64,000 nucleotides of DNA from Bdellovibrionales bacterium RIFOXYD12_FULL_39_22 (GCA_001770205.1 MEQL01000007.1:62001-126000), one strand, 5' to 3'. Positions 21,201 to 47,254 are shown, numbered from the stretch's first letter. Notes: generated by a model from the letters alone, not told the origin. Translations and numbers: made by a program.

Positions 21201-21814
21201 ATAATTCTATTGCAGACAATGCTAAGATCTACTCCAATGTTAAATTAGGAAAGAATGTTGTTATCGAGGACTACTGTATAATAGGAATTCCTCCACGGGG
21301 AAAGGTTGATGGTGAATTAGAAACAATTATCGGAGATAATTCAACCATTCGTTCACATACCGTGATCTATGCGGGAAATAAAATTGGAAATAATTTTCAA
21401 ACAGGTAACAAAGCAAACATTAGAGAAGAGAATAATATTGGGAATAATGTAAGCATTGGAACCCTGACTGTTGTTGAGCATCATGTAGAAATTGAAGATA
21501 ATGTGAGAATACATACCCAGGCGTTTGTGCCTGAATATTCAAAGCTAAAAAATGGTTGTTGGCTTGGACCGAATGTCGTTTTGACAAATGCCCGCTATCC
21601 ACTTTCCCCGAATGCCAAGCATGAATTGTTTGGGCCACTAGTTGAAGAGGGTGCCAAAATAGGTGCAAACACAACGCTTTTGCCTGGAGTCGTTATCGGC
21701 AAGAATGCGCTTGTTGGGGCAGGGAGTGTTGTTACCAAAAATGTTGAAAGTAATGATGTTGTTGCTGGAAATCCTGCGAGAAAAATAAAAACCATTCAAA
21801 ATCTTCCATATTAA
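21197..21814 (+). CDS. Hexapeptide-repeat sugar N-acetyltransferase (WbpD/WlbB-like)
   Basis: Left-handed beta-helix repeats; GPNVVLTN, IGANTTLLPGVVIG, VGAGSVVT, GNPAR. Confidence 0.88.
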   Translation: MNNSIADNAKIYSNVKLGKNVVIEDYCIIGIPPRGKVDGELETIIGDNSTIRSHTVIYAGNKIGNNFQTGNKANIREENNIGNNVSIGTLTVVEHHVEIEDNVRIHTQAFVPEYSKLKNGCWLGPNVVLTNARYPLSPNAKHELFGPLVEEGAKIGANTTLLPGVVIGKNALVGAGSVVTKNVESNDVVAGNPARKIKTIQNLPY

Positions 21815-21838
21815 TCAATTTATAAAGGCGAATGTTGT

Positions 21839-22942: not shown

Positions 22943-22946
22943 TTCT

Positions 22947-30356: not shown

Positions 30357-32263
30357 AAGTATCGAAACGTATCAGGTCCAAGATTCGATCGCTAATGAGC
30401 CTTTTAATGGGGGGGCGAGATATTGTAGATGCGCTTACCTCGTTCTATCGGATGTATGCATACCAATACAAAAAACAGATTGGAATTCTTTTAGCAGGGG
30501 CAATTCTTTCTGGCGCCATAGAGATTATGGGCCTTCTTTTGCTCTACATTCTCCTGCGGTTTCTTATTAACATTAACTCATTCGACGATTCACACATAGT
30601 TATTCGCACACTAAACTCGTTTGGTATTGCTAACAGAAATCACATGGCCGCGATTATCGGAATGGCAATAACGGTTACTTTCGTCGCCAAAAACATCTAC
30701 ATAATATTCTATTATCATACACAGCATCTAACGCTTAGGCGTTGGAAGATAGATTTAGGAAAAAGGCTAATGGAGGGCTATATGGCCGCTCCGTATCAAA
30801 TCATGTTGGGATACAACAGCTCAACAATTATAAGAAACGTGAACAATATTGTGGCCCAGGCCCTGAACGGATTTGTTCTTTCTGGTTTTAACTTCTTTTC
30901 TAATATGATTGTAGGTCTAATTTTGCTCAGTATCCTTTATGTGAAATACTTTACTATCACACTAATAACTGCTTCAACTTTAGTGGTCTCAACGATACTT
31001 CAAAATAAATTCATCAAAAAGAAGACAGCTGATCTGGGGAGAGAGCGCGACAAGCTGATGGTGGAACAAAACAAGAGCGTGTATCAAGGACTACACTCAT
31101 TAAAGGAAACTAAAGTTTTATTGAGAGAAAACTTTTTTTTAAAGAACTTTGAGACAATCAACAATTTGACCGTGGATAACGATACTACCGCAATGTTGTA
31201 TGCGAGGCTGCCTAGCCACATAACGGAAGTTGTTATTATTATCTCTATCGTGATGATTTCTGTTGTCGTCTTGTTTGAAAATTCCCATGACTCTAGTCTA
31301 TCGGTTGCCTCTCTTGGAATTCTCGCGGCCGTTGCATTTAGAATTGCTCCTATTATGAATCGTACTACCGCAGCATTGCAAGGATTGAGCAATAATCTTA
31401 ACAGCATGAAGACATTGTTTGCAGAATTTCAAAAACTAAAAGATTACAAATTGCTTAATTTGGATCGCAAGAATATCAACGCCCTCCCCTTTAATTCAAC
31501 GATAAAATTACAAAAAGTCAATTACAGATACCCTAAGGCCAGATCAAGGGCACTGGCGGATATCAACTTGGCCATTAATCGTGGAGAGGTAATGGGTGTA
31601 GTCGGAGAGTCAGGTGCTGGCAAGACCACCTTGATTGATTTAATTCTAGGACTTATTGCCCCGACAGAGGGGAATCTTTCCATTGATAATGTATTGATCA
31701 CAGAGAGTAATACAAAAAACTGGCAAAAAAATGTCTGCTACGTTCCTCAAGCAGTATACCTGAGTGATGCGTCTATTCGATCAAACATTGCTTTCGGAGT
31801 CCCCGATAACGAAATTGACGATGGCCGAATTGTGGAAGTGCTAAAGGATGTTGATCTGTATGATCATGTTATGGCCCTTGATGGTGGAATAGCATTTGCG
31901 GTAGGCGAAAATGGAAAAAACTTATCGGGAGGCCAGAAACAGCGTGTTGGTATCGCTCGGGCGCTATATCTTGATGCAGACGTTATTGTACTCGATGAAG
32001 CAACAGCGGCATTAGATGTGGGCACGGAATACAAGATCACCGAAACAATCAAAAAAATTAAAAATAAAAAGACGATCATTGTTATAGCACATCGTCTATC
32101 GACGATTTATGAAGCAGATCGGGTAGTTTTTATGAAAGATGCGAAGGTTGTCGATGTTGGTACTTTCAGTGAATTAGTCGGGCGTAATCCTGCTTTTGAA
32201 GACATGGCGATCAAATCACGGCTTGTTACAAATGATGTTGCGTCACAGGCAGAGATTGTCTAA
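30353..32263 (+). CDS. ABC transporter, fused TMD+NBD, PglK/Wzk-like lipid-linked glycan flippase
   Basis: TM N-terminal half; GESGAGKTT, LSGGQKQRVGIARALY, VLDEATAALD, IAHRLSTI; glycan-locus context. Confidence 0.88.
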   Translation: MKVSKRIRSKIRSLMSLLMGGRDIVDALTSFYRMYAYQYKKQIGILLAGAILSGAIEIMGLLLLYILLRFLININSFDDSHIVIRTLNSFGIANRNHMAAIIGMAITVTFVAKNIYIIFYYHTQHLTLRRWKIDLGKRLMEGYMAAPYQIMLGYNSSTIIRNVNNIVAQALNGFVLSGFNFFSNMIVGLILLSILYVKYFTITLITASTLVVSTILQNKFIKKKTADLGRERDKLMVEQNKSVYQGLHSLKETKVLLRENFFLKNFETINNLTVDNDTTAMLYARLPSHITEVVIIISIVMISVVVLFENSHDSSLSVASLGILAAVAFRIAPIMNRTTAALQGLSNNLNSMKTLFAEFQKLKDYKLLNLDRKNINALPFNSTIKLQKVNYRYPKARSRALADINLAINRGEVMGVVGESGAGKTTLIDLILGLIAPTEGNLSIDNVLITESNTKNWQKNVCYVPQAVYLSDASIRSNIAFGVPDNEIDDGRIVEVLKDVDLYDHVMALDGGIAFAVGENGKNLSGGQKQRVGIARALYLDADVIVLDEATAALDVGTEYKITETIKKIKNKKTIIVIAHRLSTIYEADRVVFMKDAKVVDVGTFSELVGRNPAFEDMAIKSRLVTNDVASQAEIV

Positions 32264-32306
32264 TTAACTGCTTCTATATGCCTCAATACTTGCTTAATTT
32301 CCAAAT

Positions 32307-32366
32307 ATCTCTCAAATCTCTCAAATCTGTCAAAAATCTCTCAAAATCTCTCAAAAATTGAGATAT
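32307..32366. repeat. Tandem repeat of ATCTCTCAA(A)n, five direct copies plus one near-inverted copy
   Basis: Units start at 32307, 32316, 32325 (ATCTGTCAAAA), 32336, 32346; then TTGAGATAT (32358-32366), overlapping TATAAT at 32364-32369. Confidence 0.85.
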
Positions 32367-32419
32367 AATGGGTGTGGATTATTTATTTTTAATTTTATAG
32401 AATAAAAGAGAGAAGCAAA

Positions 32420-33784
32420 ATGATGGCAACTTATTCAGAAATCGAAGGCCGTTGTCTTGAGTTTAAAGAGAAGTTAACTACCTATCAGCAACTTTACAAA
32501 ACGGTTGTGGCGTTTGCCAACGATGTGGGTGGAAAAATCATAATAGGGGTTCAGGATAAAGATAGAAAAATAATTGGTGTAAATGAGCACGACCTCGATC
32601 GCTATTTGGAAGAAATTCCGCGGGCCATCTATGAGGCGATTACCCCCGCTTTGCAACCGGCCATGGCCGTCAAGCTTATGTCTGGAAAGCAGCTTTTGGA
32701 GATCGAAGTTTTTCCTGGAAACAAAAAACCATATTTTATAAAATCCAAAGGCCTTCCGGCGGGAGTATACATTAGAATTGGTTCGCATAGTGTTCCGGCC
32801 TCTGCAGACATCTTGGAAGATCTTCAACGTATGGCCGGCAGTGAAAATTTTGACAGCGGCCTAGCACCAGGAGTTACAGTACAAGAACTTGATCCTCTGG
32901 CACTGAAGTCGTATTACGGAAAGCATTATTCTCAAGAGCGGTTAGTCTCAGATAAGATTATTATCCGTGACCCCTTTTCTGGAAAGCTGGCCATTTCATT
33001 TGCCGGGGTGCTTTTTTTTCATCCGCATCCAGAGAAAATTTTTCCTCAATGTGAAATACTATTCACCAAGTTTGCCACAACAGATACAAAAAAAATTTCT
33101 CGGAGCATTGACTTTCACGGCCCTTTAATTTCGTTGGTAGATGAGGTTCTGACAGAAGTGCAATCTCATTTGGCCCGCGACTTTAAATTAAAGGGGGCCA
33201 GGCTGTCGGCCCAAAATCATATAATACCAGAAGAGGCCTTGCGTGAATCACTGATGAATGCGGTGATCCATCGAAAATACTATTTGAGCGATGCCATTAA
33301 AATAGCACTATTTTCTGATCGCTTGGAAATATTTAGTCCTGGAAATTTTCCTGGCCCCATTGTAGATTTGCGCAGTGGCGTCTCCTATTCTAGAAATTCA
33401 CTCATCCGCCAAATTGCACGTAATGCTGGACTTGTCGAAAAAAGAGGATTGGGTCTGATTAAAATTTTGGACACTTGTCAACATAATGGTAATCCCCCTC
33501 CAGATATCTATGAAGGTGAAGGAGATTTTGTAAAAGTAGTCTTTTATTTGGATCAAAACAAAAAAATAAAAGAGCAGTCAATCGTTGATTATAATTCCTG
33601 GCCCACGGGCCTTGTGTTACTACGAGAGTGGCATCAAGAAAAGAGGGCGTTCACACTCAAAGAGCTAGCAGCATTGTTGCAGTGTTCTCGAAACACGGCA
33701 AAAAGTAAAATTGAGTTTTTGCTAACGAAGAAATTTTTGTATTTAAAAGGTGCGGGCCCGAGTACTCGCTACGAATGGCAGTAG
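32420..33784 (+). CDS. AlbA_2 (Schlafen-like) domain + RecG-C/HATPase_c_4 domain + C-terminal HTH protein
   Basis: EGRCLEFKE, AFANDVGGKIIIGV, ALRESLMNAVIHRKY, DRLEIFSPG, SRNSLI, VEKRGLG, HTH ending G.GPSTRY. Confidence 0.85.
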   Translation: MMATYSEIEGRCLEFKEKLTTYQQLYKTVVAFANDVGGKIIIGVQDKDRKIIGVNEHDLDRYLEEIPRAIYEAITPALQPAMAVKLMSGKQLLEIEVFPGNKKPYFIKSKGLPAGVYIRIGSHSVPASADILEDLQRMAGSENFDSGLAPGVTVQELDPLALKSYYGKHYSQERLVSDKIIIRDPFSGKLAISFAGVLFFHPHPEKIFPQCEILFTKFATTDTKKISRSIDFHGPLISLVDEVLTEVQSHLARDFKLKGARLSAQNHIIPEEALRESLMNAVIHRKYYLSDAIKIALFSDRLEIFSPGNFPGPIVDLRSGVSYSRNSLIRQIARNAGLVEKRGLGLIKILDTCQHNGNPPPDIYEGEGDFVKVVFYLDQNKKIKEQSIVDYNSWPTGLVLLREWHQEKRAFTLKELAALLQCSRNTAKSKIEFLLTKKFLYLKGAGPSTRYEWQ

Positions 33785-33799
33785 TTTTAGTACCAGTGA

Positions 33800-34906
33800 C
33801 TATTTGAATTTTGCAATAGTTTCTAGGTAGGCCCGGGCCATGCTATCTATAGAAGCACTCCATGTATAGTTGGAAAGAACATGTTTGCGTCCGTTTATCC
33901 CCATCATGTTTCTTAGTGTCTCATCTCTAATTAATTTTGTTATTGCTGCCGATGCTTCTACCTGGTCATCTGTTTTGACAATAATTCCCGTAACGTTATC
34001 AATTGTGACTTCTGCCGGCCCATCGGCGTTTGAAACCACTACAGCTTTTTGACAGGCCGACGCTTCTAATATAGCAACGCCAAAACTCTCTTTGCGCGAA
34101 AGTGCGACGAAGAGATCCATTTGATTGATCACACTAGGAACTTGCTCATGTGGAATTTTTCCAAGGAAGGTGGTGTGATCTGATATACCAAGTCGTGCTG
34201 CTAAATCGAGCAGGTCTTTTTTTTGCGGGCCATCGCCTGCAATTAATAATTTTAAATTGTAATCTTGCTGAAGACTATTTTGGGCCTTAGCAAAAGCATG
34301 TAGCAAAGTATCAATTCCGTATTTATGTTCGAGCGTTTTTACCGTTCCAATTGTTAGATTTTTATTTGGTGTGTTCACATTTGACTGTGGTGCAAACAAT
34401 TTTTCGTCGATCCCAAAAGGAGTTATAAAAACCAAGTCGTGGGCAAAAGTTTTTGCCATCTCTTTTGCCATAGCATTACTTGTTGAAGCAATAGCAGTTG
34501 CATTTTTTAAGTTCCCTTTCAAAAACCATTTATGGACAGATGATTTATTGGGGAAATCGTAGATATCACTTCCCCAAACGGATAGAAGTAGTGGTTTAAA
34601 ACGACAGAGTCTTGCCAACAAACCATATCCGGTGGCGTAGTGAGCATTAAGAATATCTGGACGTAGCATTTTGAGAAGAGACCTTAAACTGATAGCGGAG
34701 GAAAAATATCCAAAGGGGGCATAAAAAGGAAGTATATGAATTTGTACTTTCGCATCATACTGATTGGGCAGCGGAGGAGGAGGGTGGCAGCTGATAACAT
34801 GCACATCGATACCGTTGGCCGCTAGCCCATTGGCCCATCTACAAGTATGTATTGATTGTGCGTTAGCAAGAAGAGCTACCTTCATTTGCATATTCCGGTT
34901 AGTCAA
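33800..34906 (-). CDS. GT4 glycosyltransferase
   Basis: SIHTCRW, PDILNAHY, SVWGSD, PFGID, ESFGVAILEASAC, VTG. Confidence 0.92.
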   Translation of the reverse strand: MTNRNMQMKVALLANAQSIHTCRWANGLAANGIDVHVISCHPPPPLPNQYDAKVQIHILPFYAPFGYFSSAISLRSLLKMLRPDILNAHYATGYGLLARLCRFKPLLLSVWGSDIYDFPNKSSVHKWFLKGNLKNATAIASTSNAMAKEMAKTFAHDLVFITPFGIDEKLFAPQSNVNTPNKNLTIGTVKTLEHKYGIDTLLHAFAKAQNSLQQDYNLKLLIAGDGPQKKDLLDLAARLGISDHTTFLGKIPHEQVPSVINQMDLFVALSRKESFGVAILEASACQKAVVVSNADGPAEVTIDNVTGIIVKTDDQVEASAAITKLIRDETLRNMMGINGRKHVLSNYTWSASIDSMARAYLETIAKFK

Positions 34907-35867
34907 AATTTTTGATGCAGTCGACGATATTGTCGGCGTGAATGTAATAATCTTTTTCTAGCACTCGATTGGCCGGCGCCGGAAGATCTGGTAGGGCCAG
35001 TCGGCGGGCACGGGTGGATGGAGCATGTTCTAAAACTTGCGCCAAGATTTCTGCGGCAACTCCAAAGCTGGCCCAGGTACCATCTACCACGATAATTTTT
35101 TTAGTCTTTCTCGCAGAGGCAAGGATTGTACTACTATCAAGAGGCTTAATAGATCTTAGGTCAATGACCTCGGCATTGATGGCATAGGTGTTTTGCAATA
35201 TTTGGGCGGCCTTCAGTGATTCTTGAACTAAATAGGAGCTAGCGACAATCGTCAGATCTGTTCCTTCTCTTGCGATATGGGCCTTGCCAATGGGTGTTTC
35301 AAAAATTTCTTCAGGAACCTCATCTTCAATCCCATACAACCATCGATCATCAATGAATACTACCGGATTAGGATCTTTGATTGCCGCAACCATTAAACCC
35401 TTGGCATCGCGGGCAGTCGCTGGCATGACCACCTTGAGTCCTGGCACATGAGCAAACATGGCCTGTAGTGCTTGGGAGTGCTGAGCGGCCTGCTCACCGC
35501 CACGATTTATGATCCCCCAAAACACAACGGGTACCGGGAGTGCCCCACCATTCATATAACTCCAGTTGGCCGCTTGATTAATTATTGGATCAAAAGCATA
35601 GAGCATAAAATCCACCCGAGGATGCACCGAAATAGCTGGATGGCCGGCGATGGCCGCCCCGACGGCCGCACCGGTCATAGCATTTTCAGAAACAGGTGTG
35701 TCAATAACTCGATCATCTCCAAAAAGCTCAATCAAATCTTTACAAGTGTTCCCTACATACCATGGACTTTTAACTCCTTGGCCGATTAGAATAACGCGTT
35801 CGTCTGCTTGCATGGCCTGCTTTAATGCTTCGTTGATAGCAAGACCGAATTTAAGTTTTCTGGCCAT
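34899..35867 (-). CDS. TPP-dependent 2-oxoacid dehydrogenase E1 beta-like subunit
   Basis: RVIDTPVSEN, DPIINQAA, AAQHSQ, PGLKVV.P, DPNPVVF, EVIDLRSIKPLD. Confidence 0.92.
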   Translation of the reverse strand: MARKLKFGLAINEALKQAMQADERVILIGQGVKSPWYVGNTCKDLIELFGDDRVIDTPVSENAMTGAAVGAAIAGHPAISVHPRVDFMLYAFDPIINQAANWSYMNGGALPVPVVFWGIINRGGEQAAQHSQALQAMFAHVPGLKVVMPATARDAKGLMVAAIKDPNPVVFIDDRWLYGIEDEVPEEIFETPIGKAHIAREGTDLTIVASSYLVQESLKAAQILQNTYAINAEVIDLRSIKPLDSSTILASARKTKKIIVVDGTWASFGVAAEILAQVLEHAPSTRARRLALPDLPAPANRVLEKDYYIHADNIVDCIKNFD

Positions 35868-36840
35868 AAAAAAGGTCCTTGTGCAGATCGTTTCGAGAGG
35901 TATTCAGCAAGGCGACAGCTTTTTGGTGAATGCCTTCAATTTCTTTTTTGAATTTTAGTTGCACCACTTCCATTTCGGAGGCAGTTAAAAGTTTATGGGA
36001 AATTAGATAGGATTCGAATAATTTTATGGGATCTCTTTTCAACCAGCGCTCAATTTCGTCTAGTGGCCGGATATCAGTATGAGTTCCTTGAATATTATCA
36101 TCCGGGCCTACATGGCCTCGCTGCCGATAGGTTTTACATTCGATAAAGGCCGGGCCTTGGCCTTCGCGTGCTGCCAAGCTTGCTTCCAGAGCACACTCGC
36201 GAACTGCAAGTACATCGTTTCCATCAATAACATATGATTTCACATTAAAGGCGTCGGCCAGTTTAGAAATTTCTCTCGTAGGCCTTATCTCATCAATTCG
36301 CATATGGGTGGAGTATAAATTATTTTCGCAGACAAAAACTATTGGAAGTTTTTTGAGAGAGGCAAAATTAAGAGATTCTGCAAGGACTCCCTCTCCGGTG
36401 GCCCCATCTCCAAAATATGAAACTGCTATTTGTTTTTTATGATTATTTTTTGCTGCTAATGCCGCGCCAAGAGCAAGTGAAATAGTTCCTGAGACGATGG
36501 GGGCGGCACCCAACATTCCAACTTCTGGTGCGATGATGTGCATTGATCCGCCTTTTCCCTTGCAACATCCTTCTGATAAACAATAAATCTCCATGATCAT
36601 GCGTTCGAGAGATCCGCCCTTGGCCAAATAGTGCCCATGCGAGCGGTGATTTCCGAAGACGTAATCTTGTTTGCCTAACGTAGAACTGATTCCGACGGCA
36701 ATGGCCTCTTGGCCTGAACACATATGCACTGGACAGCGAATAATTCCTTGGAGAATTGGTTCAACAAAACTCTCTTCGGCGAATCTGATTTTTATTAATT
36801 CCGAGTATAGGTGAGCGGCCAGCTCTTTGGGCATTTGCAC
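35851..36840 (-). CDS. TPP-dependent 2-oxoacid dehydrogenase E1 alpha-like subunit
   Basis: HMCSGQEA, HRSHGHYLAKG, GKGGSMH, TPP motif GDGA...ENN, DGND, TYRQRGH, DPI. Confidence 0.92.
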   Translation of the reverse strand: MQMPKELAAHLYSELIKIRFAEESFVEPILQGIIRCPVHMCSGQEAIAVGISSTLGKQDYVFGNHRSHGHYLAKGGSLERMIMEIYCLSEGCCKGKGGSMHIIAPEVGMLGAAPIVSGTISLALGAALAAKNNHKKQIAVSYFGDGATGEGVLAESLNFASLKKLPIVFVCENNLYSTHMRIDEIRPTREISKLADAFNVKSYVIDGNDVLAVRECALEASLAAREGQGPAFIECKTYRQRGHVGPDDNIQGTHTDIRPLDEIERWLKRDPIKLFESYLISHKLLTASEMEVVQLKFKKEIEGIHQKAVALLNTSRNDLHKDLFYGQKT

Positions 36841-36905
36841 TTTACATTTTCTCCGCGCTGTGAGTAGAATCGCCCCAAGATAAGTTAGTTTGTATTATTT
36901 GACAA
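36841..36905. promoter_or_regulatory. Interlocked divergent sigma70-like promoters
   Basis: + strand TTTACA (36841-36846), 18 nt, TAGAAT (36865-36870); - strand TTGTCA (36905-36900), 17 nt, TATCTT (36882-36877). Confidence 0.45.
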
Positions 36906-38596
36906 TAAGGCATTGCTTGAAAGCTTGGTTTTCCTCAGACAAGATTGCGGCTTGGTTACCTTTTTTAATGCTTTTCTTAGTTTTTCCGCTCGCCCTCACT
37001 CTACACAACCAAGAAGAGTTATCCCATCCACTGGGGCACTATCTTGTCATCTATTTTTCTTTCGCCATTGTCTCTTACTTGTTGTTGGTGCTTTTGTTGC
37101 GATATCTTTTGCCCACCTCAAGCAAAGAGCTGATTTCTGTTTTAATGTTTCTTTTGGGGATGTTCATTTTAATCTCAGATATTGTTGCTCCGCTGCGACT
37201 GGATAGCTTTGATGATTTGTCAGGAATTGGCAAAATAAAGGTTCTTCCGCTCGATTTTATTTTTGAGTTTTTTGTGGGGATTGCGTTGTTATTTTGTCTG
37301 CGAGTAAAACGAGATTGGTTATTTAAGATTGGATCAATAATTACGATCTACTTTTTTGTTTCACAAGTGGCGGTTTGGGCCCACGCGGTATCAACTAAGG
37401 ATGATGCACCAGAAAATAAAGATCTGGCCCAACAATTAAAAGGAAATACTACCGTTGAGTCTAAAGGAAATATATACCACTTCATTTTTGATACATATGG
37501 CCCAGGTTTTTTAGAACATCTTTCAGCAATAAAAGGGGCGCAGGAAAGTTTTAATGGTTTTGTTTATTTTAAAAAAAATCTAACCAATTCTGATTATACC
37601 CAAATTTCGGTTCCGATAATTTGGAGCGGACATACTTTTTTGGATTCAGACCTTTCCATTTCTGCTTGGAGACAGACAGGGTTTATGTCTCAGGGCCCAC
37701 TGGTTGATTTTCATAAAAGTGGTTACACTATTTATGAGTACCAAACTAAATATCGTCACCGCCTGGCCGATCATACGGTGCATGGCAACGATCTAAAAGC
37801 CAAAATTTTTGAAATAGGAGATGATGAATTCGGCCCGTGGAATATAATGGATTTGTCTATATTGCGGGCCGCACCTACTTTTTTACAAAACTACATTTTC
37901 TATAAGGGCGATGGACCACTCTCCAATCTGAGATTTGCCTTCGCCAAAACAAAAAAACTGTCTGGGAATTTTGTGAGGGCCCCATTAGCAGTTGCGGTGC
38001 TACAAAAATTTCTAGCAGAAGAACCCTCAAGATCAAATAGTGGCAATTATGTGCTTGCCCATATATCTTTGCCGCATGACCCATATGTAGTGACAAGAAA
38101 ATGTACTACAAATTTTACCGCCACCACATATGATGATCAGGCCATTTGTGCTGTTCGATTTATGGTTGAGATTATTAAGACACTAAAAGCGGAGGGCCGT
38201 TATGAGGACTCAACTATTATTTTTCAAGGTGACCATGGCCCTGTATTAAGTAAGAGAGAACGCAAGCAAAAAGGTATCGTTTTTTTAAAAGGCCCAAAGA
38301 CATTACTTCTGATAAAACCACCCAATAGCAGTGACTTACCAATGGAGATCTCTGAAATTCAGTCCCAGTCATTGGATATTGCCCCCACTCTATACGCCTT
38401 GACAGGCGTTTCGCATGATCAAAAGATGGAATTAGCTGGAGAAAATCTATTTTCTAATCATGTTAATAAGTCGCGAGAGATACATATTTACTCTTATAGG
38501 CGGCCATATAATAATCGCACGGAAGAGCTAATGCATTGGAGTTTTGTTGACGGGATAGGATTTAAGAAGTATCAAAATATACTTCCAAAAATGTAA
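36890..38596 (+). CDS. Membrane-anchored alkaline-phosphatase/sulfatase-fold transferase
   Basis: ~5 TM helices, [21 protein letters not shown] (Thr), [22 protein letters not shown]. Confidence 0.78.
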
Positions 38597-38619
38597 AAAA
38601 ATTAATAGGAGAAGCTTAT

Positions 38620-39927
38620 ATGACGAAGACAGTTTATGTGGGAATGAGTGCAGATTTGATCCATCCTGGACATTTAAATATTATCAATAACGCAGTTAAG
38701 TATGGCGAGGTTATCGTTGGAGTTTTAACAGATGAGGCAATTGCCAGTTATAAGCGTCTTCCATATATGAATTTTGAGCAACGCAAACTTGTAGTAGAAG
38801 GGTTACGTGGAGTTACTAAAGTTGTTGCGCAAGAGAGTCTAGATTATGTGCCTAATTTGGAAAAAATTAAACCTAACTTTGTTGTTCATGGTGACGATTG
38901 GAAAACAGGAATTCAGAGCGAAACAAGACAGCGAGTTATTGATACGCTGGCCAAGTGGGGGGGGCAGTTGATTGAGATTCCGTATACAGATGGTATTTCG
39001 TCTACGGCCCTAATCAAAGCATTAAAAGAGATTGGAACTACTCCTGAAATTCGTCAAAATAGATTAAGAAGACTGTTATCGGCCAAAAAATCTGTGCGGA
39101 TGATGGAGGCACACAATGGATTGACGGGTTTGATTGTAGAAAATGCCAAGATTACAAAAAATAATACAACCGTAGAGTTTGATGGAATGTGGTTGTCGAG
39201 TTTAACGGAATCTACTGTACGTGGAAGGCCAGATATTGAGGCGGTAGATTTTTCATCAAGGATGACTACCTTAAATGATATTTTAGAGGTTACCACGAAG
39301 CCAATTATTTTTGATGGAGACACTGGTGGAAAAAATGTTGAGAATTTTGTCTTTATGGTCAAGACGATGGAGAGATTGGGGGTATCGGCAGTAATCATAG
39401 AGGATAAGGTTGGATTAAAGCAAAACTCTCTTTTTGGTACAAGTGTTCAGCAAACCCAGGCCACCCCAGAGGAGTTTGCACGAAAAATTCGGGCCGGGAA
39501 AAAGGCGCAAGTTGGCCACGCTTTTATGGTTATTGCCCGAATTGAAAGTTTAATTGCCGGGGCCGGAGTGGCCGATGCAATTTTACGCGCAAAAACATAT
39601 ATTGAAGCAGGTGCCGATGGGATTATGATCCATAGCGCCAAAAAGGATCCTAAGGAAATTTTTGATTTTTGTGATGCATATAAAAAATTGGAAAAGGTTG
39701 TTCCGCTGGTAGTAGTTCCGTCTAGCTTTAATTCAGTATATGAGAAAGATTTGGCCGAACGAGGTGTTAATATCGTTATATATGCTAATCAATTACTTCG
39801 AGGAGCATATCCTGCGATGATGCGTGTAGCTAATACTATATTGGAAAATGAGCGTGCTTTGGAGTGCGATGATACCATAATGCCAATTAAAGAGATCCTA
39901 ACGCTGATTCCTAATGCGGAAGCTTAG
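38620..39927 (+). CDS. pepM: Phosphoenolpyruvate mutase with N-terminal cytidylyltransferase domain
   Basis: HPGH (HxGH), VVHGDDW, ISST in the N-domain; EAHNGL, DGDTG and the diagnostic EDKxxxxxNS ([10 protein letters not shown]); [19 protein letters not shown]. Confidence 0.96.
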
Positions 39928-41611
39928 TTTTATCAACCTCTTTCCAGTTAAGAAGAGGAGTTCCCTCTCGCACTGTTTCTATTATTCTTCCGTGCTTTGC
40001 CGAGGCATAGGATATGTTTGGGGCCATTGTTGATAACAGATCTGGTTGTTGTGCCAATTCAGAAAAAAGATATTTGAAAATATTAACATTACTTAATATC
40101 GAGATCTCTCTTATTTGTTGGCCTGCTGGGCGAGGCCATCGAATTGCACAAAAAACACCGAACATATCTTCTGTGATAAGTTGTTCATCAACGCCATGTT
40201 GATTCATTTCCTTTCTCATTTTATCAATAGAGAGGTTTCTGGAAGGAAGGCCTCGATACCTAAATGAACCATGATCTCCCAGCGCAATGATTACGGCGGA
40301 ATTATCCTTGTCAATAATATGAGTAACGAGATCAAGAAGTTCATCTTCTGCATGTCTGTAAATTTTTCTATATTCTTCGATCCAATAATCCAAGTAGATC
40401 CATGGCCGTTCTTTGGTATCAGCGCTATCGGTAATTTTAACGCCTATATCGCGAAGTTTTTTTGCCGAATATTTGACGGAGTGAGCTGCTCCGGCCTTAA
40501 TGAAATAAAAGGTTGGTCTTTCATTGCTTGCATCATCAATGCGTTTTTTAATTTTATTAATGAATTCATCCTTGGCCAGTGAAACGCTAGGTCTGTTTTC
40601 CCAAAAAAAGTAGTAGATTTTTTTTAGTAATTTACTGCGAAACAAAGAGATGGCCGCAGTGGCCTCATTTTTTCCAAAAAAAGTAAAATCAATCTGCTGC
40701 CCGGGATGATCATTTAATAGATCATGACTATTTTGTAATAGATAGTCTACTTGGTAGCCGTTATGCTTAAAGATGGTTAAAGTTGGATTGAATCTATTTC
40801 CTCCAATTATGCTGCGAGCAAATGAATTATCAGAAATACCAGTTTCTCCACGGTTGTAGTGATGATCCATAAGAAAAATGGAAAGGAGACTACTAAGAGT
40901 AGACTCATAATTAGAATATGTATTGTCGTATATCGAAAAGTCTAGCCCGGAAAGTTTATTCACCATCGAGGAGTTATCATAGTTGTAGATTTTTTTTACA
41001 GCATAAGCTGAATGAAATGATTCTAGTAAAATAAAATAAACATTAGGGCGTGTTACAAATTTCAATTTACCATACTGCTTAATTTTTCTTGAGTCTATCT
41101 GAGCACTTTTTTCTTCGCTGCGTAAGGTGCTGGCCCGCCCACCCCATTGAATAATGGCACTGATTAGCATTGATGCCAGAATGATATTTAAGAACATGAA
41201 TCGCGCTTTATAAACTATCATTCCGACAAATAATGGAAGGCCTAGATAAATAAGATTCTTCTCTAAAGTGCTATCGTTGTAAGAAATATTTGCCTTAAAA
41301 AGATAGAGAATCGTTGCAACACCAAGCGCCGCCACCGTGAGATCCATTACTCGTTTTTTTAAAACAGAGGGAAGGTGGGAGGCGGCCAGTATTATATGAG
41401 TCACTAAAATGATTATGGAGTTGCTAACAAGAAATAAAATAATAAGAAAGAAGAGCGTCCGTAGAATTTGTTCTGAAGTAAACATGTGATAGTTGATCTG
41501 CAAGACACCAATAATCGGATAAACGGTGGCCAGTATTATAAACAAATGCGCCTGGCCAAGGGCAGAAAGTATATTTTTGGAGGTAAAAAGCATATTTAAA
41601 TTGTAGGCCAT
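39911..41611 (-). CDS. Membrane-anchored alkaline-phosphatase/sulfatase-fold transferase, close paralog of 22947-24575
   Basis: [47 protein letters not shown] shared with the paralog; 3' end overlaps pepM by 17 nt. Confidence 0.78.
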
Positions 41612-41644
41612 GAAGAATAAATTTCTATGTTGTCACATAAGAAT

Positions 41645-41836
41645 TTATTTTTTCTCGGAGAATATGCGCTGGAAAGTTTCTTTAATCTTTCCCCAGTAAA
41701 CTTTGCCGGCAACTATAGACCCGACGACAGCTCCAACAACTGCTTGCATAACAATGGACATTGATCCAGGGTCTATATACGCGTTGGCAGTGCCGATAAA
41801 TGGAACAAGAATTATAATTAGAAGTAGTATTCTCAT
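41645..41836 (-). CDS. Small membrane protein with an AYIDPGS motif (63 aa)
   Basis: AGGAG RBS before ATG 41836; signal-like MRILLLIIILVPFIGTANA, then YIDPGS, a TM helix and a basic tail. Confidence 0.7.
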   Translation of the reverse strand: MRILLLIIILVPFIGTANAYIDPGSMSIVMQAVVGAVVGSIVAGKVYWGKIKETFQRIFSEKK

Positions 41837-41925
41837 TGCAATTTCTCCTGAAAAGTTAAGTCGCGACATTAGCACCATATTATTTTGTTGTAAAATTAAA
41901 TTGCACTACTTAGAATCATCTTCCA

Positions 41926-42516
41926 ATGAGCAAAGTCTTATTTGACTATTTTGTAGCAGTTGTTGCCTTGTTTTTTTTACTTCCAATTTTTTTGGTGATC
42001 GCCATTGTCATAAAGTTGACATCGTCTGGGCCAATTTTTTATCGTGGAGAGCGGACGGGCCAACATGGTGTATCGTTTAAAATTTTTAAGTTTCGTACGA
42101 TGGTTGTTAACGCTGAGAAATTAGGTGGGCCAACGACGGGACTAAATGATCCGAGAGTGACAAAAATCGGTCATTTTTTGCGGAAATATAAACTAGATGA
42201 ACTTCCCCAACTTATTAATATAGTTAGAGGAGAAATGAGTTTCGTTGGGCCACGGCCTGAAGTAAAACGCTATACGGATCTGTTTTTAGGGGATGAGAAG
42301 TTGATTTTGACTGTTAGGCCAGGAATCACCGATTATAGTTCAATCAAATTTGCGGATCTTGATTACCAAGTAGGTGCAGAAAATATAGATCAAAACTTTG
42401 AGGCCAAAATTTTACCAGAAAAAAATAAGTTGCGTATAAAATATGTCAAAGAACAATCTTTCTGGCTTGATTTAAAACTGATTTTTTTGACGATCTTGCG
42501 AGTTATAAAAAAATGA
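41926..42516 (+). CDS. Priming phosphoglycosyltransferase (Bac_transf, PglC/WbaP-like)
   Basis: GPIFY..ER.G, KFRTM, DPRVT, LDELPQL.N, MSFVGPRP, RPGIT. Confidence 0.95.
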   Translation: MSKVLFDYFVAVVALFFLLPIFLVIAIVIKLTSSGPIFYRGERTGQHGVSFKIFKFRTMVVNAEKLGGPTTGLNDPRVTKIGHFLRKYKLDELPQLINIVRGEMSFVGPRPEVKRYTDLFLGDEKLILTVRPGITDYSSIKFADLDYQVGAENIDQNFEAKILPEKNKLRIKYVKEQSFWLDLKLIFLTILRVIKK

Positions 42517-43427
42517 GATATTTGTCGCTTGATAATCACAAATTTTGTCCTTCTTGTTTGGGATTAGGCTGTCTGGCATTTGGTGGGTATGGGGTCGGTT
42601 TTGTTGATGATCAAAAATTAGAACAGACTTTTTTTAAAGCAATCGACAGTGGGATAAATTTTTTTGATACCGCAGATATATACGGCCTTGGTCGAGCGGA
42701 ACTATTTTTAGGAAAGCTTATTTCTAAAACGGCCGGGTTGCGCTCGAAATTGCTTTTGGCCTCAAAATTTGGTGTTCGTCGTTCTGATATTGGCGAGATT
42801 TTTTATGATAATTCTATTGATTGGATAGAACAGGCGTTGATGGCCAGTCTTGAGCGCCTGCAAACAGATTATCTCGATCTATATCAATTGCATTACCCTG
42901 ATAACAAAACTCCCATTGAAGAGGTTATGAATTTTTTGGATAAAAAACGGCAAGAGGGAGTGATTAGGTATTTTGGTGTTTCAAATGTCAGTGATAACGG
43001 AGTTCTTTCGGAACTTGCCAAAAAATATCCATATTTTATTACTGCGCAAATGGAAGGTAGTCTGATTCATAATCCAAATACTGCCAATTTTCCAGAACAG
43101 ATTGCGCCAATTTTTTATGGGGTATTAGCGCAAGGCCTACTGTCTGGGAAGTATGACAAAGATAGTAAGTTTGCAGAAAACGACGCCAGAAGTCGGCCCA
43201 AATATGTTAATTTTCACGGAGAAAAATTGGCGCAAAATTTAGAAGTAGTTGAGCGACTTAAAGTATTTGCAAAGAAATATGGGATGACTCCAACTCAAAT
43301 GGCATTTCGTTGGGTTCTAGATCATTATCCAAGGGCCGTGGCCTTGATTGGAGCAAAGGATCAAGAACAACTTATCGAGGCCCTTGAGAGTTGTAGCTGC
43401 GTCTCTCAAATAGATTGGACTATATGA
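42513..43427 (+). CDS. Aldo/keto reductase
   Basis: GINFFDTADIYG, ASKFG, SLERLQTDYLDLYQLHYPD, GVSN, LAQGLLSGK; ATGA-coupled on both sides. Confidence 0.92.
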   Translation: MRYLSLDNHKFCPSCLGLGCLAFGGYGVGFVDDQKLEQTFFKAIDSGINFFDTADIYGLGRAELFLGKLISKTAGLRSKLLLASKFGVRRSDIGEIFYDNSIDWIEQALMASLERLQTDYLDLYQLHYPDNKTPIEEVMNFLDKKRQEGVIRYFGVSNVSDNGVLSELAKKYPYFITAQMEGSLIHNPNTANFPEQIAPIFYGVLAQGLLSGKYDKDSKFAENDARSRPKYVNFHGEKLAQNLEVVERLKVFAKKYGMTPTQMAFRWVLDHYPRAVALIGAKDQEQLIEALESCSCVSQIDWTI

Positions 43428-44692
43428 GAATATGGCTAATTAAGGCCGGAGAGCCATTTCCTCTTTCATCATCAGCTCGTTTATTCCGAACTGGTATGAT
43501 GGCCAACATTTTAATTGAGCGAGGCCATCATGTCGTTTGGTGGACTACGGCCTATGATCACTTTGAGAAAAAATACATTGCAGACAAATTTACGATTCAT
43601 CGGTTACAAAATAATTATGAGCTGGCCATTCTCTATCCTACGACGCCATATAGAAAAAACATTTCATTAGCGAGAATAAAAAATCATCAAGAATTAGCGC
43701 AGACATTTGTCAGAGAGATTAATTCGTTTCCCCTTCCAGATATTATTGTGTGCTCTTATCCCATTATTGAGTTGGCCGAGGAGGCAATTAGGTTTGGTCA
43801 GCGGCATAACATCCCGGTGGTGGTGGATATTAGAGATTTATGGCCAGATGTTTTTTTAGAGGTCTTGCCGCGTTACCTTAATTTTTTAGGACGGCCGTTT
43901 TTATATTTTTTAAACCAGAAGGCACAATATGTATTTGATAACGCCGAAACGATTATTGGTTTAACAGATGAATTTTTACAATGGGCCTATAAAAAATCTA
44001 ATCGAAAGCAATTAAAGAAACATATTAACGATTTTGTTGTTCCTATGGGATATTCAGATGTCATTCCGGATGCAGGGGACGTGATAAATGCTGACCAGTT
44101 TTGGGAAAAACAAGGAGTGGTGAAAACTAATTTTAATATCTGCTTTTTTGGTGCACTAGGAAAACAATTTGATATGAAGACGGTGATTGAAGCGGCAAAA
44201 AGGATGCAAAATAGAAATGATAGAAATGATAGGATCAAGTTCATTATCTGCGGGGATGGAGAGTCTTTAGCATTATATAAAGAGCAGGCAAGTGATTTAT
44301 CTAATGTGTTATTTACTGGGCGAGTGGACAAAGTAAAAATTTATTCATTAATGAGACGATCAAGTATCGGATTAGCGCCATATAAAAATAGTTTTGACTT
44401 TAGGGCCAGTATTGGCAATAAACCGGCCGAATATTTTTCCGCGGGCCTTCCTATTATTTCCGCAGTCGACGGCGTGTTAGGTAGACATCTTCGTCAATAT
44501 AATTGTGGCCTGATTTATTCTTCCGGAGATCCTAGTGATTTAGTAGATAAAATTATGGAGCTATATAACAATCGTTCGAAGTGTGAGAAGATGAGTTCCA
44601 ATGCGCAGGCCTTGTATGCAGAGAAGTTTATTGCTAAAAAAGTTTATACAGAATTTGCAAAAAAACTGGAGGCCATCTCCAATAGGTATTGA
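43424..44692 (+). CDS. GT4 glycosyltransferase
   Basis: ERGHHV, PDIIVCS, VVDIRDLWPD, ICGDG, NKPAEYFSAGLPII. Confidence 0.88.
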   Translation: MRIWLIKAGEPFPLSSSARLFRTGMMANILIERGHHVVWWTTAYDHFEKKYIADKFTIHRLQNNYELAILYPTTPYRKNISLARIKNHQELAQTFVREINSFPLPDIIVCSYPIIELAEEAIRFGQRHNIPVVVDIRDLWPDVFLEVLPRYLNFLGRPFLYFLNQKAQYVFDNAETIIGLTDEFLQWAYKKSNRKQLKKHINDFVVPMGYSDVIPDAGDVINADQFWEKQGVVKTNFNICFFGALGKQFDMKTVIEAAKRMQNRNDRNDRIKFIICGDGESLALYKEQASDLSNVLFTGRVDKVKIYSLMRRSSIGLAPYKNSFDFRASIGNKPAEYFSAGLPIISAVDGVLGRHLRQYNCGLIYSSGDPSDLVDKIMELYNNRSKCEKMSSNAQALYAEKFIAKKVYTEFAKKLEAISNRY

Positions 44693-44738
44693 TGGTTATT
44701 CTTACAATTCCTATGTTTTATATGCTGGAGTTATGGAT

Positions 44739-45989
44739 ATGGAAAATCGGATTATTCAATTTATAGGGAAGACAACATACTTGGCATTTTTACTGCTGGC
44801 AGCGCTGCTATTTATTGCCTTTGCCTTAAGTTCGCTTCATCACATTTTTCTTATTCCTCCGGCCTTATATTTTTTATATTTGTCCGCCAAAAAAGGTGAG
44901 TTGCGTCAGCAGTTTTGTCAGTCTAGGGCAGAGTTATTTCTGCTATTATTGGTTATTACCGCCCTGATTTCGATTGTGATCAACATTGATATGATTAAAG
45001 CGCCTCTAAAAAACATATTAAAGCTTAAATATTTTATTATTCCCTTGCTCGCTATTCCTGCCCTTAAATATACCTTCAGGACTTATATTACAGAGCGAAA
45101 AATCAAAATTTTGGCCAATACATTTTTAATTTCCATTACGGTGGCCACGGTAGCTGGGATGATTGGAATGAAGACCGGATTTAATCCGCTTAAGTGGGCA
45201 ACGGTAAAAACCGCTCGCAATGCTGGGATGTATGGCATGGTGATGAGCTACGCTTATGGACTTAGTATGATATTGCCGGCAATGTTGGCGACGATTGTTG
45301 CCTTGAGAAATAAGAATAATCGTTATCTTACTAACTATGTAAGTGAAAAACTTCTATGGGGAGCAACAATTGTTAATTTGCTCGGCCTATATTTTTCTTA
45401 TACGCGGGGGGCAATGTTGGGAATGATTGCTGCTTTACCGTTTGTTTTTTTCTTTGCGCGCAGGAAAATATTTTGGGCCATGATGGCCATGGCCGGAGTT
45501 GTTTTCTCTGTGATAATTGTTATTACATTCAGCGGTACAAACATTAATTACTATCGTTTAAATGCGGCCAAAAGTAATTTTTTGCGAATGAGTATCTATA
45601 AGGTTGTGGTAAAAATGGCCGAAGAAAAACCACTTCTAGGAGTAGGATTTCGCAATGTTGAACGGCAAGTAAAAGAATTTCGTAATAAATATCAAATGCA
45701 AGATTCTAAGTTTGTTGGCCATGCACACAATAACTATCTTGAGTTTCTAGGAGGGACGGGGATTATTGGGTTCACCTTTTTTGCCCTATTTTTGTTTTCC
45801 TGGATGCAGATGCTATTGGTTAGCAATAATATTTGGCCTGCACAAATATTACTTCCGTTTATGATCAGTTTTTTAACTTCGGGACTTTTTCAGAGTACTA
45901 TCATTGATGGTGAAAATACCTATCTTGTAATGGCCTTGTTCATGTTAAGTCTGATGCGGTGCTCAGAAAAGGTACGACGAACCTCATAA
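44739..45989 (+). CDS. O-antigen ligase family (Wzy_C) membrane protein
   Basis: Many TM helices, SYTRGA, R..IY, PLLGVG, HAHNNYLE; GGAG RBS before ATG 44739. Confidence 0.85.
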   Translation: MENRIIQFIGKTTYLAFLLLAALLFIAFALSSLHHIFLIPPALYFLYLSAKKGELRQQFCQSRAELFLLLLVITALISIVINIDMIKAPLKNILKLKYFIIPLLAIPALKYTFRTYITERKIKILANTFLISITVATVAGMIGMKTGFNPLKWATVKTARNAGMYGMVMSYAYGLSMILPAMLATIVALRNKNNRYLTNYVSEKLLWGATIVNLLGLYFSYTRGAMLGMIAALPFVFFFARRKIFWAMMAMAGVVFSVIIVITFSGTNINYYRLNAAKSNFLRMSIYKVVVKMAEEKPLLGVGFRNVERQVKEFRNKYQMQDSKFVGHAHNNYLEFLGGTGIIGFTFFALFLFSWMQMLLVSNNIWPAQILLPFMISFLTSGLFQSTIIDGENTYLVMALFMLSLMRCSEKVRRTS

Positions 45990-46093
45990 TATTTATGTAA
46001 TAATATTTATGGTCAAGTTACATTTTCTGTTGTTACCATATCTGCCACAAATATTTTTTATTATTAACTGCGACAATGACAATGGAGGCAACA

Positions 46094-47254
46094 ATGGCAG
46101 TGTATATTTTATCGGGGGCACGAACCCCTAGTGGTAGTTTTATGGGAGCATTATCTTCAGTTCCCGCTCCTCGCTTAGGAGCAGTGGCCATTAAGGGAGC
46201 TTTGGCCAATGCTCAAATCTCTGGTGATAAAGTTGGCGAAGTATTTATGGGAAATGTTATTCAGACGGGAGAAGGCCAGGCACCGGCACGTCAGGCCGCA
46301 TTGTTTGCGGAGTTGCCTGAATCTGTTCCCTGTACGACAGTTAACAAAGTGTGTGGTTCTGGAATGAAAACCATAATTATGGGAGCGCAATCAATATTGG
46401 CCGGAGATAATAATTTGGTAGTTGCCGGTGGTATGGAAAATATGTCCATGATTCCTCATTTTGTGGGAGGCAGTCGTTCGGGGACTAAATTTGGGCATAT
46501 TGAAATGAAAGATACATTGTTGCATGATGGGTTGTGGGATGTTTATACTAACCGCGCCATGGGAAATTGTGCGGAAGAGTGTGTGACAAAATTTAATTTT
46601 AGTAGGCAAGCACAAGACGCATTTGCCATTGAATCTTTTAAGCGTGCACAACAGGCGATGAAAGAGGGTATTTTTAAAAAGGAAATTGTTCCAGTTACCA
46701 TCAAGGGCAAGGCCGGAGATGTGGTGATTTCCGAAGATGAAGGGCCAATGACGGCCAAGTTTGACAAGATTCCTGCTTTGAAACCGGCCTTTGATAAAAA
46801 TGGCTCGATAACTGCGGCCAACGCCTCCACCATTAATGATGGCGCTTCCGCGGTAGTTTTGGGAGGAGAAGAGTATCGCAGTAAAGCAAAATTTAAAATT
46901 GTTGCTTATGCCGGGCATGCTCAAAATCCTACCTGGTTTACTACGGCGCCGGCGGCAGCAATGAAAAAGTGCTTGGAAAAAGCACATTTGAAATTAAGTG
47001 ATATTGATCTATTTGAAATTAACGAGGCCTTTGCTTGTGTGACGATGGCCGCTATGACAGAGTTAGCACTAGATCATTCTAAAGTTAACATCTATGGTGG
47101 TGGAGTGAGCCTAGGACATCCTATAGGAAATTCTGGAACTCGCATTGTGGTTACGTTAATGAATGCAATGGAGCAGAAAAAATCGAAATATGGTATGGCC
47201 TCGATATGTATAGGTGGTGGTGAGGCCTTGTCTCTCATTCTCGAAAGACTTTAA
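46094..47254 (+). CDS. Acetyl-CoA C-acetyltransferase (thiolase)
   Basis: NKVCGSG, GGMENMS, TAANAS.INDGA, FEINEAF, GHPIG.SG, CIGGG; GGAGG RBS. Confidence 0.96.
   Translation: MAVYILSGARTPSGSFMGALSSVPAPRLGAVAIKGALANAQISGDKVGEVFMGNVIQTGEGQAPARQAALFAELPESVPCTTVNKVCGSGMKTIIMGAQSILAGDNNLVVAGGMENMSMIPHFVGGSRSGTKFGHIEMKDTLLHDGLWDVYTNRAMGNCAEECVTKFNFSRQAQDAFAIESFKRAQQAMKEGIFKKEIVPVTIKGKAGDVVISEDEGPMTAKFDKIPALKPAFDKNGSITAANASTINDGASAVVLGGEEYRSKAKFKIVAYAGHAQNPTWFTTAPAAAMKKCLEKAHLKLSDIDLFEINEAFACVTMAAMTELALDHSKVNIYGGGVSLGHPIGNSGTRIVVTLMNAMEQKKSKYGMASICIGGGEALSLILERL

Follow-up and report, generated by a model that had tools for sequence, protein, structure and literature searches.

We analysed a 64,000-nucleotide stretch of the genome of Bdellovibrionales bacterium RIFOXYD12_FULL_39_22 (GCA_001770205.1, MEQL01000007.1:62001-126000), hereafter the window, in which genes for the alpha and beta subunits of a thiamine diphosphate (ThDP)-dependent E1 enzyme lie beside a gene for the phosphoenolpyruvate (PEP) mutase PepM. 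A description made earlier from the DNA alone (the sequence-only reading) had reported an E1 pair without E2 or E3 that is coupled to a family 4 glycosyltransferase (GT4) gene and divergent from the pepM unit. These features were all found in place, as was the dTDP-glucose 4,6-dehydratase gene rfbB that the same description had named. The genes on which the analysis turns are as follows.

33800-34906, minus strand: GT4 with a Glyco_trans_4_2 N-terminal domain, translationally coupled to E1 beta (PF00534 146 bits, PF13477 128.8 bits)
34899-35867, minus strand: E1 beta (PF02779 and PF02780)
35851-36840, minus strand: E1 alpha, ThDP-binding, alphaKADH2-type, without an E2 (PF00676 215.9 bits)
36890-38596, plus strand: U568, a 568-aa membrane protein with a C-terminal domain of the sulfatase/alkaline-phosphatase superfamily, a candidate phospho(no)-group transferase
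38620-39927, plus strand: CT-PepM, a Fom1-type fusion of an N-terminal cytidylyltransferase (CT) domain (PF01467) and PEP mutase (TIGR02320 389.5 bits)
39911-41611, minus strand: U566, a second membrane sulfatase-like protein (42% identical to a 548-aa open reading frame (ORF) elsewhere in the window)
41926-42516, plus strand: small PglC-type polyprenyl-phosphate phosphoglycosyl transferase (Bac_transf), the priming enzyme (PF02397 198.5 bits)
42513-43427, plus strand: aldo-keto reductase (AKR), the proposed reductase of an acetyl branch (PF00248 195.9 bits)
3781-4818, plus strand: RfbB, a dTDP-glucose 4,6-dehydratase that may supply a 4-keto acceptor (TIGR01181 498.7 bits, cut-off 365.1)

On the minus strand, E1 alpha overlaps E1 beta by 17 nt and E1 beta overlaps the GT4 gene by 8 nt. 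A divergent spacer of 49 bp separates E1 alpha from the U568/CT-PepM operon, which is followed by U566 on the minus strand and then, on the plus strand, by the Bac_transf and AKR genes, a further GT4 gene and a Wzy-like gene. The phosphonate block sits between the E1 pair and the transferase-AKR unit (41926-43427), which is on the other strand and 5 kb away. We read this layout as a rearranged glycan locus with interleaved phosphonate genes, and not as a functional E1-PepM unit. The same gene order was found on a metagenome contig, L128, with 100% identity over all 11 matching window proteins; this contig may share its source with the window and so offers no independent confirmation. A scan of positions 32000-46500 returned 41 promoter-like and 12 terminator-like sites, compared to 39.9 and 13.4 expected from shuffles. 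Pfam domains were searched in 44 of the 47 window ORFs of at least 150 aa (two antisense ORFs inside longer genes and an open-ended 1757-aa ORF at 58728 were left out), and among them no ThDP enzyme of the phosphonopyruvate decarboxylase (Ppd) type, no class-V 2-aminoethylphosphonate (AEP) transaminase, no E2 and no E3 was detected. Six-frame hidden Markov model (HMM) searches of the whole genome, which is 94.6% complete, gave no match to TIGR03297, TIGR03301 or PF00198 on the contig that carries the window. Both kinds of search bear out the earlier statement that the window holds neither Ppd nor an AEP transaminase.

The E1 subunits are encoded as separate alpha (PF00676) and beta (PF02779 and PF02780) chains, as in alphaKADH2-type pairs, and an alignment to the human pyruvate dehydrogenase (PDH) E1 alpha shows that the ThDP motif GDG...ENN is intact in E1 alpha. 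The best NCBIfam and PDB matches of the pair are PDH E1 subunits, and the scores lie under the curated cut-offs for alpha (TIGR03182, 266.6 against 393.85) and beta (PRK09212, 295.5 against 321) as well as for TIGR03181 (192.4 against 411.35). E1 alpha is the sole E1_dh match in the host genome (G000). No lipoyl-bearing E2 for the pair was found genome-wide, in an assembly whose level of completeness would allow for a missing piece. The only 2-oxoacid_dh match in the genome is a 268-aa ORF beside a class-3 lipase gene (G000:C40:84675-85481, equal to L126 1108-1914), which by Pfam consists of the 2-oxoacid_dh catalytic domain alone, without a lipoyl or E3-binding domain. As a separate observation, PF00676 occurs in 381 of the 401 genomes of the phylum sample described below, and among the matches listed, long OGDH-like forms or fusions predominate. 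In most genomes of the same family there are two to four PF00676 matches, including, among the matches listed, ORFs of 680-950 aa; G000 has the window pair only, and a long-form E1 gene of the usual kind was not detected in its 94.6%-complete assembly.

We collected the best 80 loci encoding E1 alpha relatives from genome contigs, the top relatives being those of Geomonas paludis (60%) and of metagenome-assembled genomes of Deltaproteobacteria (57%). When 15 proteins from the window and from the Ppd operon described below were searched against these loci with tblastn, relatives of Ppd, U568 and U566 were each found at 0 of the 80, and a PepM-like match was found at a single one, L038, where it is weak (28%) and 7 kb off. 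Pfam annotation of neighbours covered 55 ORFs of five loci and, for a further 25 loci, 136 ORFs that flank the pair (L042 and L045 were excluded on account of size). Six of these 30 loci encode an E2, mostly together with an E3, and 24 lie among nucleoside diphosphate (NDP)-sugar genes. The neighbours in the 24 E2-less loci are short-chain dehydrogenase/reductase-type epimerases and dehydratases, DegT aminotransferases, PglF-like dehydratases, HldE-like and GmhA-like proteins, glycosyltransferases, radical-SAM enzymes, methyltransferases and NeuB. Context labels that do not depend on a tree were given to all 80 loci according to which of 21 reference neighbours tblastn found no further than 6 kb away, yielding 31 loci of E2 context, 29 of sugar context and 20 of neither. 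Within the window itself, G+C is 0.444 at 34001-36000, where the E1 genes lie, and 0.37-0.41 around it; the raised G+C and the closest relatives in another lineage (Geomonas, 60%) are consistent with lateral acquisition of the pair.

A tree was built from the concatenated alpha and beta subunits with FastTree under LG+gamma (615 columns, 72 loci and the window); eight loci that lacked a subunit, or in which a subunit had under 250 aligned residues, were left off. The window is placed in a 27-tip clade whose SH-like support is 1.0 and whose other members are 25 sugar-context loci and L022, which has a GT9 among its neighbours. All 31 E2-context loci lie outside this clade, so that the phylogeny suggested alongside the sequence-only reading, in its part against E2-context E1s, puts the pair in a clade separate from theirs. 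Sequence columns part the glycan-context from the E2-linked group at 20 positions in alpha and 19 in beta, and the window carries the sugar-clade residue at 7 of 8 alpha and 12 of 12 beta positions, including R84, W102, R122 and D262 of beta. Beta R84 is present in 27 of 27 members of the sugar clade and R122 in 24 of 27, with hydrophobic residues at these positions in E2-linked enzymes; it is conceivable that the two arginines bind the nucleotide diphosphate.

Within the large clade, the window belongs to a subclade of eight tips (support 0.999) with L010, L011, L012, L014, L020, L024 and L026. This subclade has a characteristic cassette, made up of a small phosphoglycosyl transferase, an AKR or a DegT protein, E1 alpha, E1 beta and a PglF-like UDP-GlcNAc 4,6-dehydratase. 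The AKR variant is found in the window, L010, L024 and L026 and the DegT variant in L011, L012, L014 and L020. The AKR gene lies between the transferase and E1 alpha genes in L010 and L026 and beside E1 alpha in L024. The PglF-like gene adjoins the pair in L010, L011, L020 and L026, and also in L016. In L010, the product of the gene immediately preceding the AKR-E1 pair is 59% identical to the window Bac_transf, of which homologues adjoin the pair in L011, L020, L026 and L113. GT4 genes with PF13477 are likewise found near the pair in L014, L020, L024 and L026. An apparent Bac_transf-AKR fusion in L010 was rejected, since the transferase match lies in another reading frame of the 500-aa ORF.

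The phosphonate genes were followed through the whole genome. CT-PepM exceeds the TIGR02320 cut-off of 319.55 with 389.5 bits, carries the ten-residue motif EDKXXXXXNS at residue 261, and is the sole PepM over the cut-off in the genome. There is also one canonical Ppd, at G000:C55:29325-30386, with 452.9 bits against a cut-off of 312.5. It opens an operon (G000:C55:29283-32664, equal to L003 10284-13664) in which ppd overlaps the gene for a PhpC-like iron-dependent alcohol dehydrogenase (Fe-ADH) by 17 nt and a gene for a 378-aa TagF-like protein (PF04464, 29.8 bits, cut-off 22.1) follows 18 nt further on. No AepZ/PhnW over the cut-off was found in the genome, where the best match scored 52.9 against 360.8. 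Chemotaxis, cytochrome and uvrC genes surround the operon and no contig end is closer to it than 29 kb, indicating that it is truly unlinked to the window. The sequence-only reading had presented a pepM that lacks its canonical coupling enzyme, and this does not hold at genome level, given the canonical Ppd and the PhpC-like Fe-ADH on C55. A canonical set elsewhere in the genome, which that reading had considered in the form of ppd-aepZ, does exist, as ppd with an alcohol dehydrogenase gene in place of aepZ. Near relatives of the fusion retain linkage: CT-PepM of G020 (62%) is in the order CT-PepM, Ppd, Fe-ADH, with a TagF-like gene upstream, and that of G051 (57.5%) has Ppd directly after it.

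Co-occurrence across genomes was examined in two samples. The first took one genome per genus from the same taxonomic family, 60 in all besides G000, and was searched with thresholds of E <= 1e-60 for PepM and E <= 1e-50 for Ppd. PepM was found in eight of these, with Ppd in seven of the eight, each time within about 2 kb of PepM, and Ppd was found in none of the 52 PepM-less genomes. The eighth PepM genome, G045, had no Ppd match; it is 86% complete, with PepM on a 2.6-kb contig. E1 alpha relatives were present in eight genomes of this sample, one of which (G051) also has PepM, on another contig. The second sample consisted of 400 other genomes of the phylum, from which about 9.5 kb was fetched on each side of every PepM place, several stretches being ended by contig ends. 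PepM was found at 37 places in 36 genomes and a Ppd relative in 33 of the 37 stretches. The four places without an adjacent Ppd (G278, G104, G197 and a second locus of G266) are in genomes that have a Ppd over the cut-off elsewhere, so a split between pepM and ppd is not unique to G000; in G278 and G104 the two genes are on different contigs. No E1 alpha or beta relative was found near PepM at any of the 37 places, and none of the five genomes carrying the closest E1 pairs has PepM. As an aside, the second PepM locus of G266 (L164, G266:C1:1592900-1612600) encodes a sulfatase-like membrane protein, a TagF-like protein, CT-PepM and an Fe-ADH and has no Ppd of its own; the only Ppd of this genome is at its first PepM locus.

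Collectively, these results make it very probable that the E1 pair is not the coupling enzyme of PepM. With moderate confidence, we favour the reading that the pair is a two-carbon sugar-branching enzyme of a surface polysaccharide and that pepM is served by the unlinked Ppd. The pair is most likely a stand-alone ThDP carboligase of the alphaKADH2 type that would act in a priming-sugar module of the polysaccharide, outside the phosphonate pathway. The sequence-only reading had proposed a two-carbon branch on an NDP-4-keto sugar, either phosphono-acetyl or plain acetyl; the comparative evidence agrees with the plain acetyl form and the phosphono-acetyl form has adjacency alone in its favour.

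Precedents for such an enzyme come from antibiotic biosynthesis. AviB1/B2 and Pau11/12 (= Plm8/9) have been assigned the C-4 two-carbon branching of NDP-4-keto-deoxysugars from pyruvate, the avilamycin branching is cited as genetically shown, and the AKR Pau7 has been shown in vivo and in vitro to convert the acetyl branch to 1-hydroxyethyl (PMC4753412, PMC4802897). A 2025 review names such enzymes alphaKADH2 and, in its available text, reports that KbDH alpha/beta couples ketones in vitro with pyruvate as the sole donor accepted, that branches are later reduced or transaminated, transamination being known from kibdelomycin, and that alphaKADH2 branching is listed for secondary metabolites, the branching of lipopolysaccharide (LPS) sugars being assigned to single-chain YerE-like enzymes (PMC12247030). 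The alternation of AKR and DegT in the eight-tip subclade fits this pattern of reduced or transaminated branches.

The genes present, their phyletic patterns, the position on the tree and the conserved cassettes lead us to infer the following chemical steps. UDP-GlcNAc or dTDP-glucose would be converted to a 4-keto-6-deoxy sugar. The pair would decarboxylate pyruvate to hydroxyethyl-ThDP and place the two-carbon unit onto the C-4 keto group of the NDP-4-keto-6-deoxy sugar, giving a 4-C-acetyl sugar. The likeliest acceptor would be a UDP-4-keto-6-deoxy-N-acetylhexosamine (HexNAc) from a PglF-like dehydratase encoded on contig C47, and dTDP-4-keto-6-deoxyglucose from RfbB would be the alternative; a UDP-HexNAc acceptor is made probable by the PglF-like UDP-GlcNAc dehydratase that is adjacent in relatives. 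The AKR at 42513-43427 may then reduce the acetyl branch to 1-hydroxyethyl, giving a 4-C-(1-hydroxyethyl) sugar, which the phosphoglycosyl transferase at 41926-42516 would load on undecaprenyl phosphate and the coupled GT4 would extend.

AviB1/AviB2, Pau11/Pau12 (= Plm8/Plm9) and KbDH, all from actinomycete antibiotic pathways, resemble the window pair in being E1 alpha/beta pairs without E2/E3 that are accompanied by NDP-sugar genes and a 4,6-dehydratase. A partner that is an AKR, as with Pau7, or an aminotransferase is common to the clade of the window pair and the antibiotic systems. In contrast to these systems, the window pair lies in a surface-polysaccharide locus of a Gram-negative-type genome, beside a PglC-type priming transferase, and probably has a derivative of UDP-HexNAc, not a dTDP-deoxyhexose, as its acceptor; the likeness is one of type and setting. 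ThDP lyases of the YerE/ErwE type with the reductases YerF/ErwF, known for yersiniose and erwiniose in LPS, share the surface-glycan setting and the same proposed course of a C-4 acyl branch followed by reduction, but YerE-like enzymes are single-chain proteins of the decarboxylase superfamily (PMC12247030), whereas the window encodes an E1 alpha/beta heteromer. The E1 components (alpha2beta2) of pyruvate and acetoin dehydrogenase share with the window pair a common fold and the ThDP motif and are its best database matches; they differ in that the window pair has no E2/E3, scores under the cut-offs and belongs to a separate clade with its own conserved residues. Ppd/AepY/Fom2 (TIGR03297) also carry out a ThDP-dependent decarboxylation of a 2-oxoacid, but belong to a different superfamily, and the E1 pair does not co-occur with PepM as Ppd does.

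Several observations weigh against the branching reading. The residues aligned to alpha-His263 and beta-His128 of the human enzyme are kept, so lipoyl-type chemistry would be possible by sequence alone; we take these two histidines, in this numbering, to be the catalytic positions. The window AKR shares no more than 34-35% identity with its counterparts in L010, L024 and L026, and its orthology is positional. The pair is 5 kb from the transferase-AKR unit and on the opposite strand, and has the 49-bp divergent spacer in common with the phosphonate operon. The PglF-like dehydratase is encoded on another contig (C47). In L017 and L025 the pair is in a NeuB/NeuC/DegT (nonulosonic-acid-like) setting, in which a different role is conceivable. 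No member of the glycan-context clade has a known activity or product. The suggested kinship to AviB1/B2, Pau11/12 and KbDH is by family and context, not by direct sequence comparison. On the phosphonate side, the best family of the Fe-ADH is the phosphonate-type TIGR03405, with a score of 301.8 that is under the cut-off of 423.7.

Another, undescribed role of the pair in the tailoring of amino sugars or nonulosonic acids is also conceivable, such as the supply or transfer of acyl or hydroxyalkyl groups for amino sugars, or a reaction at a keto position other than C-4. DegT aminotransferases, and not reductases, flank the pair in L011, L012, L014, L017, L020, L025 and L044, NeuB is found in L017 and L025, UDP-GlcNAc 2-epimerase is also found in L025, and the clade is without a characterised member. 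We consider this role unlikely, as E1-type enzymes without a lipoyl acceptor are documented keto-sugar carboligases, the kibdelomycin branch transamination fits the AKR/DegT alternation (PMC12247030), and no precedent for N-acylation by an E1 pair was met in the accessible literature.

Far less probable is that the pair uses phosphonopyruvate as the donor and so puts a phosphonoacetyl branch, with its C-P bond, on the priming keto sugar. The 49-bp spacer to the U568/CT-PepM operon, which is the same in L128, is the sole observation in its favour, and the lack of E1 relatives at the 37 PepM places and of PepM in the five genomes with the closest pairs argues against it. Among the columns conserved in the clade, the window pair deviates from the consensus at 8 of 84 in alpha and at 5 of 89 in beta, compared to 1-7 and 0-10 in five control relatives. 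The departures are just above the control range in alpha and within it in beta, and they include a single new basic residue, K256 of beta. Furthermore, KbDH took pyruvate only (PMC12247030), and phosphonopyruvate would already be used by the canonical Ppd-ADH route. We give no more credence to the proposal of the sequence-only reading that the pair is an alternative phosphonopyruvate decarboxylase pulling PepM. The absence of Ppd from the window and the ThDP dependence of both enzyme types were compatible with it, but the genome has a canonical Ppd over the cut-off, all 36 other PepM genomes of the phylum sample have Ppd, no E1 gene is adjacent to PepM at the 37 places, E1 and PepM occur together in one of eight family genomes, on different contigs, and the genomes of the closest pairs are PepM-free. 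The best NCBIfam and PDB matches of the pair might suggest that it belongs, as E1, to an ordinary pyruvate or acetoin dehydrogenase complex and lies in a glycan locus by chance; this is highly improbable in view of equivalog/subfamily scores under the cut-offs for both subunits, a 94.6%-complete assembly without a lipoyl-bearing E2 or a second E1, and a 27-tip clade that excludes the 31 E2-linked loci and is marked by 20 alpha and 19 beta separating columns.

Beside the branching enzyme, the locus is predicted to have a phosphonate function. The fusion of PF01467 to Ppm is the architecture of Fom1, in which the CT domain makes cytidine monophosphate-linked 2-hydroxyethylphosphonate (CMP-HEP), and is found in 23.6% of Ppm proteins (PMC6697681). 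CT-PepM shares with Fom1, the fosfomycin enzyme, both this architecture and the EDKXXXXXNS motif, and the Ppd and Fe-ADH of the HEP route are in the genome. It differs from Fom1 in lying in a glycan locus, with Ppd and ADH unlinked, and in that its product is probably a glycan decoration rather than an antibiotic. CT-PepM would form phosphonopyruvate, the C55 Ppd would pull this reaction, the Fe-ADH would yield 2-hydroxyethylphosphonate, and the CT domain, by analogy a HEP cytidylyltransferase, would activate it, so that the predicted product of CT-PepM with the unlinked Ppd and Fe-ADH is CMP-HEP. The TagF-like protein, the sulfatase-like membrane proteins or both may put HEP on the surface glycan.

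U568, U566 and the 548-aa ORF at 22929-24575 each have about five N-terminal transmembrane segments and a domain of about 400 aa, an architecture that we take to be like that of LtaS and EptA. In U568, hydropathy places the five segments at residues 17-162, PF00884 matches with 25.1 bits against a cut-off of 25, TIGR03417 matches with an E-value of 8.9e-9, and a GDHG motif is present. Atlas feature scores to sulfatase-domain clusters are 0.99 for U568 and 0.98 for U566, and U566 has structural TM scores of 0.70-0.71 to such clusters in the Atlas. U566 and the 548-aa ORF product are paralogues (42% identity), and U566 is weakly similar to an 849-aa YidC-like ORF directly upstream of CT-PepM in G020 (E 1e-6, with the GDHG motif in common). 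The three membrane-anchored proteins of the sulfatase/alkaline-phosphatase superfamily are candidate transferases of phospho or phosphono groups in the glycan locus. Relatives of U568 were found at seven loci in metagenome contigs, one identical and six at 24-37% identity; none of the six diverged loci, mostly on short contigs, has a PepM relative.

Other parts of the window were noted in passing. A protein with Schlafen AlbA_2 and HATPase_c_4 domains is encoded at 32420-33784, between an ABC exporter and the convergent GT4-E1 operon, and its position may be the junction of two locus blocks. The left edge of the glycan locus carries a DDE_3 transposase (1043-1972) and an AAA_14/DUF4143 ATPase (2566-3738), and DUF4143 ATPases flank the related loci L011 and L123 too. 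Positions 7741-8835, 15153-16235 and 20124-22942 encode a VimE-like deacetylase, WecB, a GFO/IDH/MocA oxidoreductase, a NeuD/PglB-type acetyltransferase and a DegT aminotransferase, a set that looks like a UDP-2,3-diacetamido-sugar pathway; the last three are presumably the equivalents of WbpB, WbpD and WbpE. At 10317-11492 lies a gene for a 391-aa DegT-family protein whose Pfam match spans only profile positions 26-202 of 360; the protein is possibly an aminotransferase that has diverged or been truncated.

PepM without a coupling enzyme is not a real novelty at genome level, and the case shows that a pepM neighbourhood without a branch-point enzyme is no sign of new phosphonate chemistry as long as the rest of the genome has not been searched, since in G000, G278 and G104 a canonical ppd is merely unlinked. 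About 13% of ppm neighbourhoods were left unclassified by Li and Horsman, according to the available text (PMC8942020), and an unlinked ppd bears on these. We regard it as possible, at somewhat under even chances, that a 4-C-(1-hydroxyethyl)-branched 6-deoxy-HexNAc and a HEP phosphonate ester occur together in the glycan. Neither a C-P-branched sugar nor a glycan doubly decorated with a branched HexNAc and a HEP ester has been reported from this kind of organism. If true, a C2-branched HexNAc in an environmental polysaccharide would be new chemistry, since the available text of the 2025 review lists E1-type branching for secondary metabolites only and LPS branching for YerE-like enzymes (PMC12247030). 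No description of an E1-type branching pair in a surface-polysaccharide locus was met in the literature covered, which mostly lies outside subscription journals. The pair is a further case of a clade, widespread and uncharacterised, whose E1 pairs lie in surface-glycan cassettes without an E2, and from the locus one would expect a glycan that bears a HEP decoration as well as a branched priming sugar, which would be detectable by nuclear magnetic resonance.

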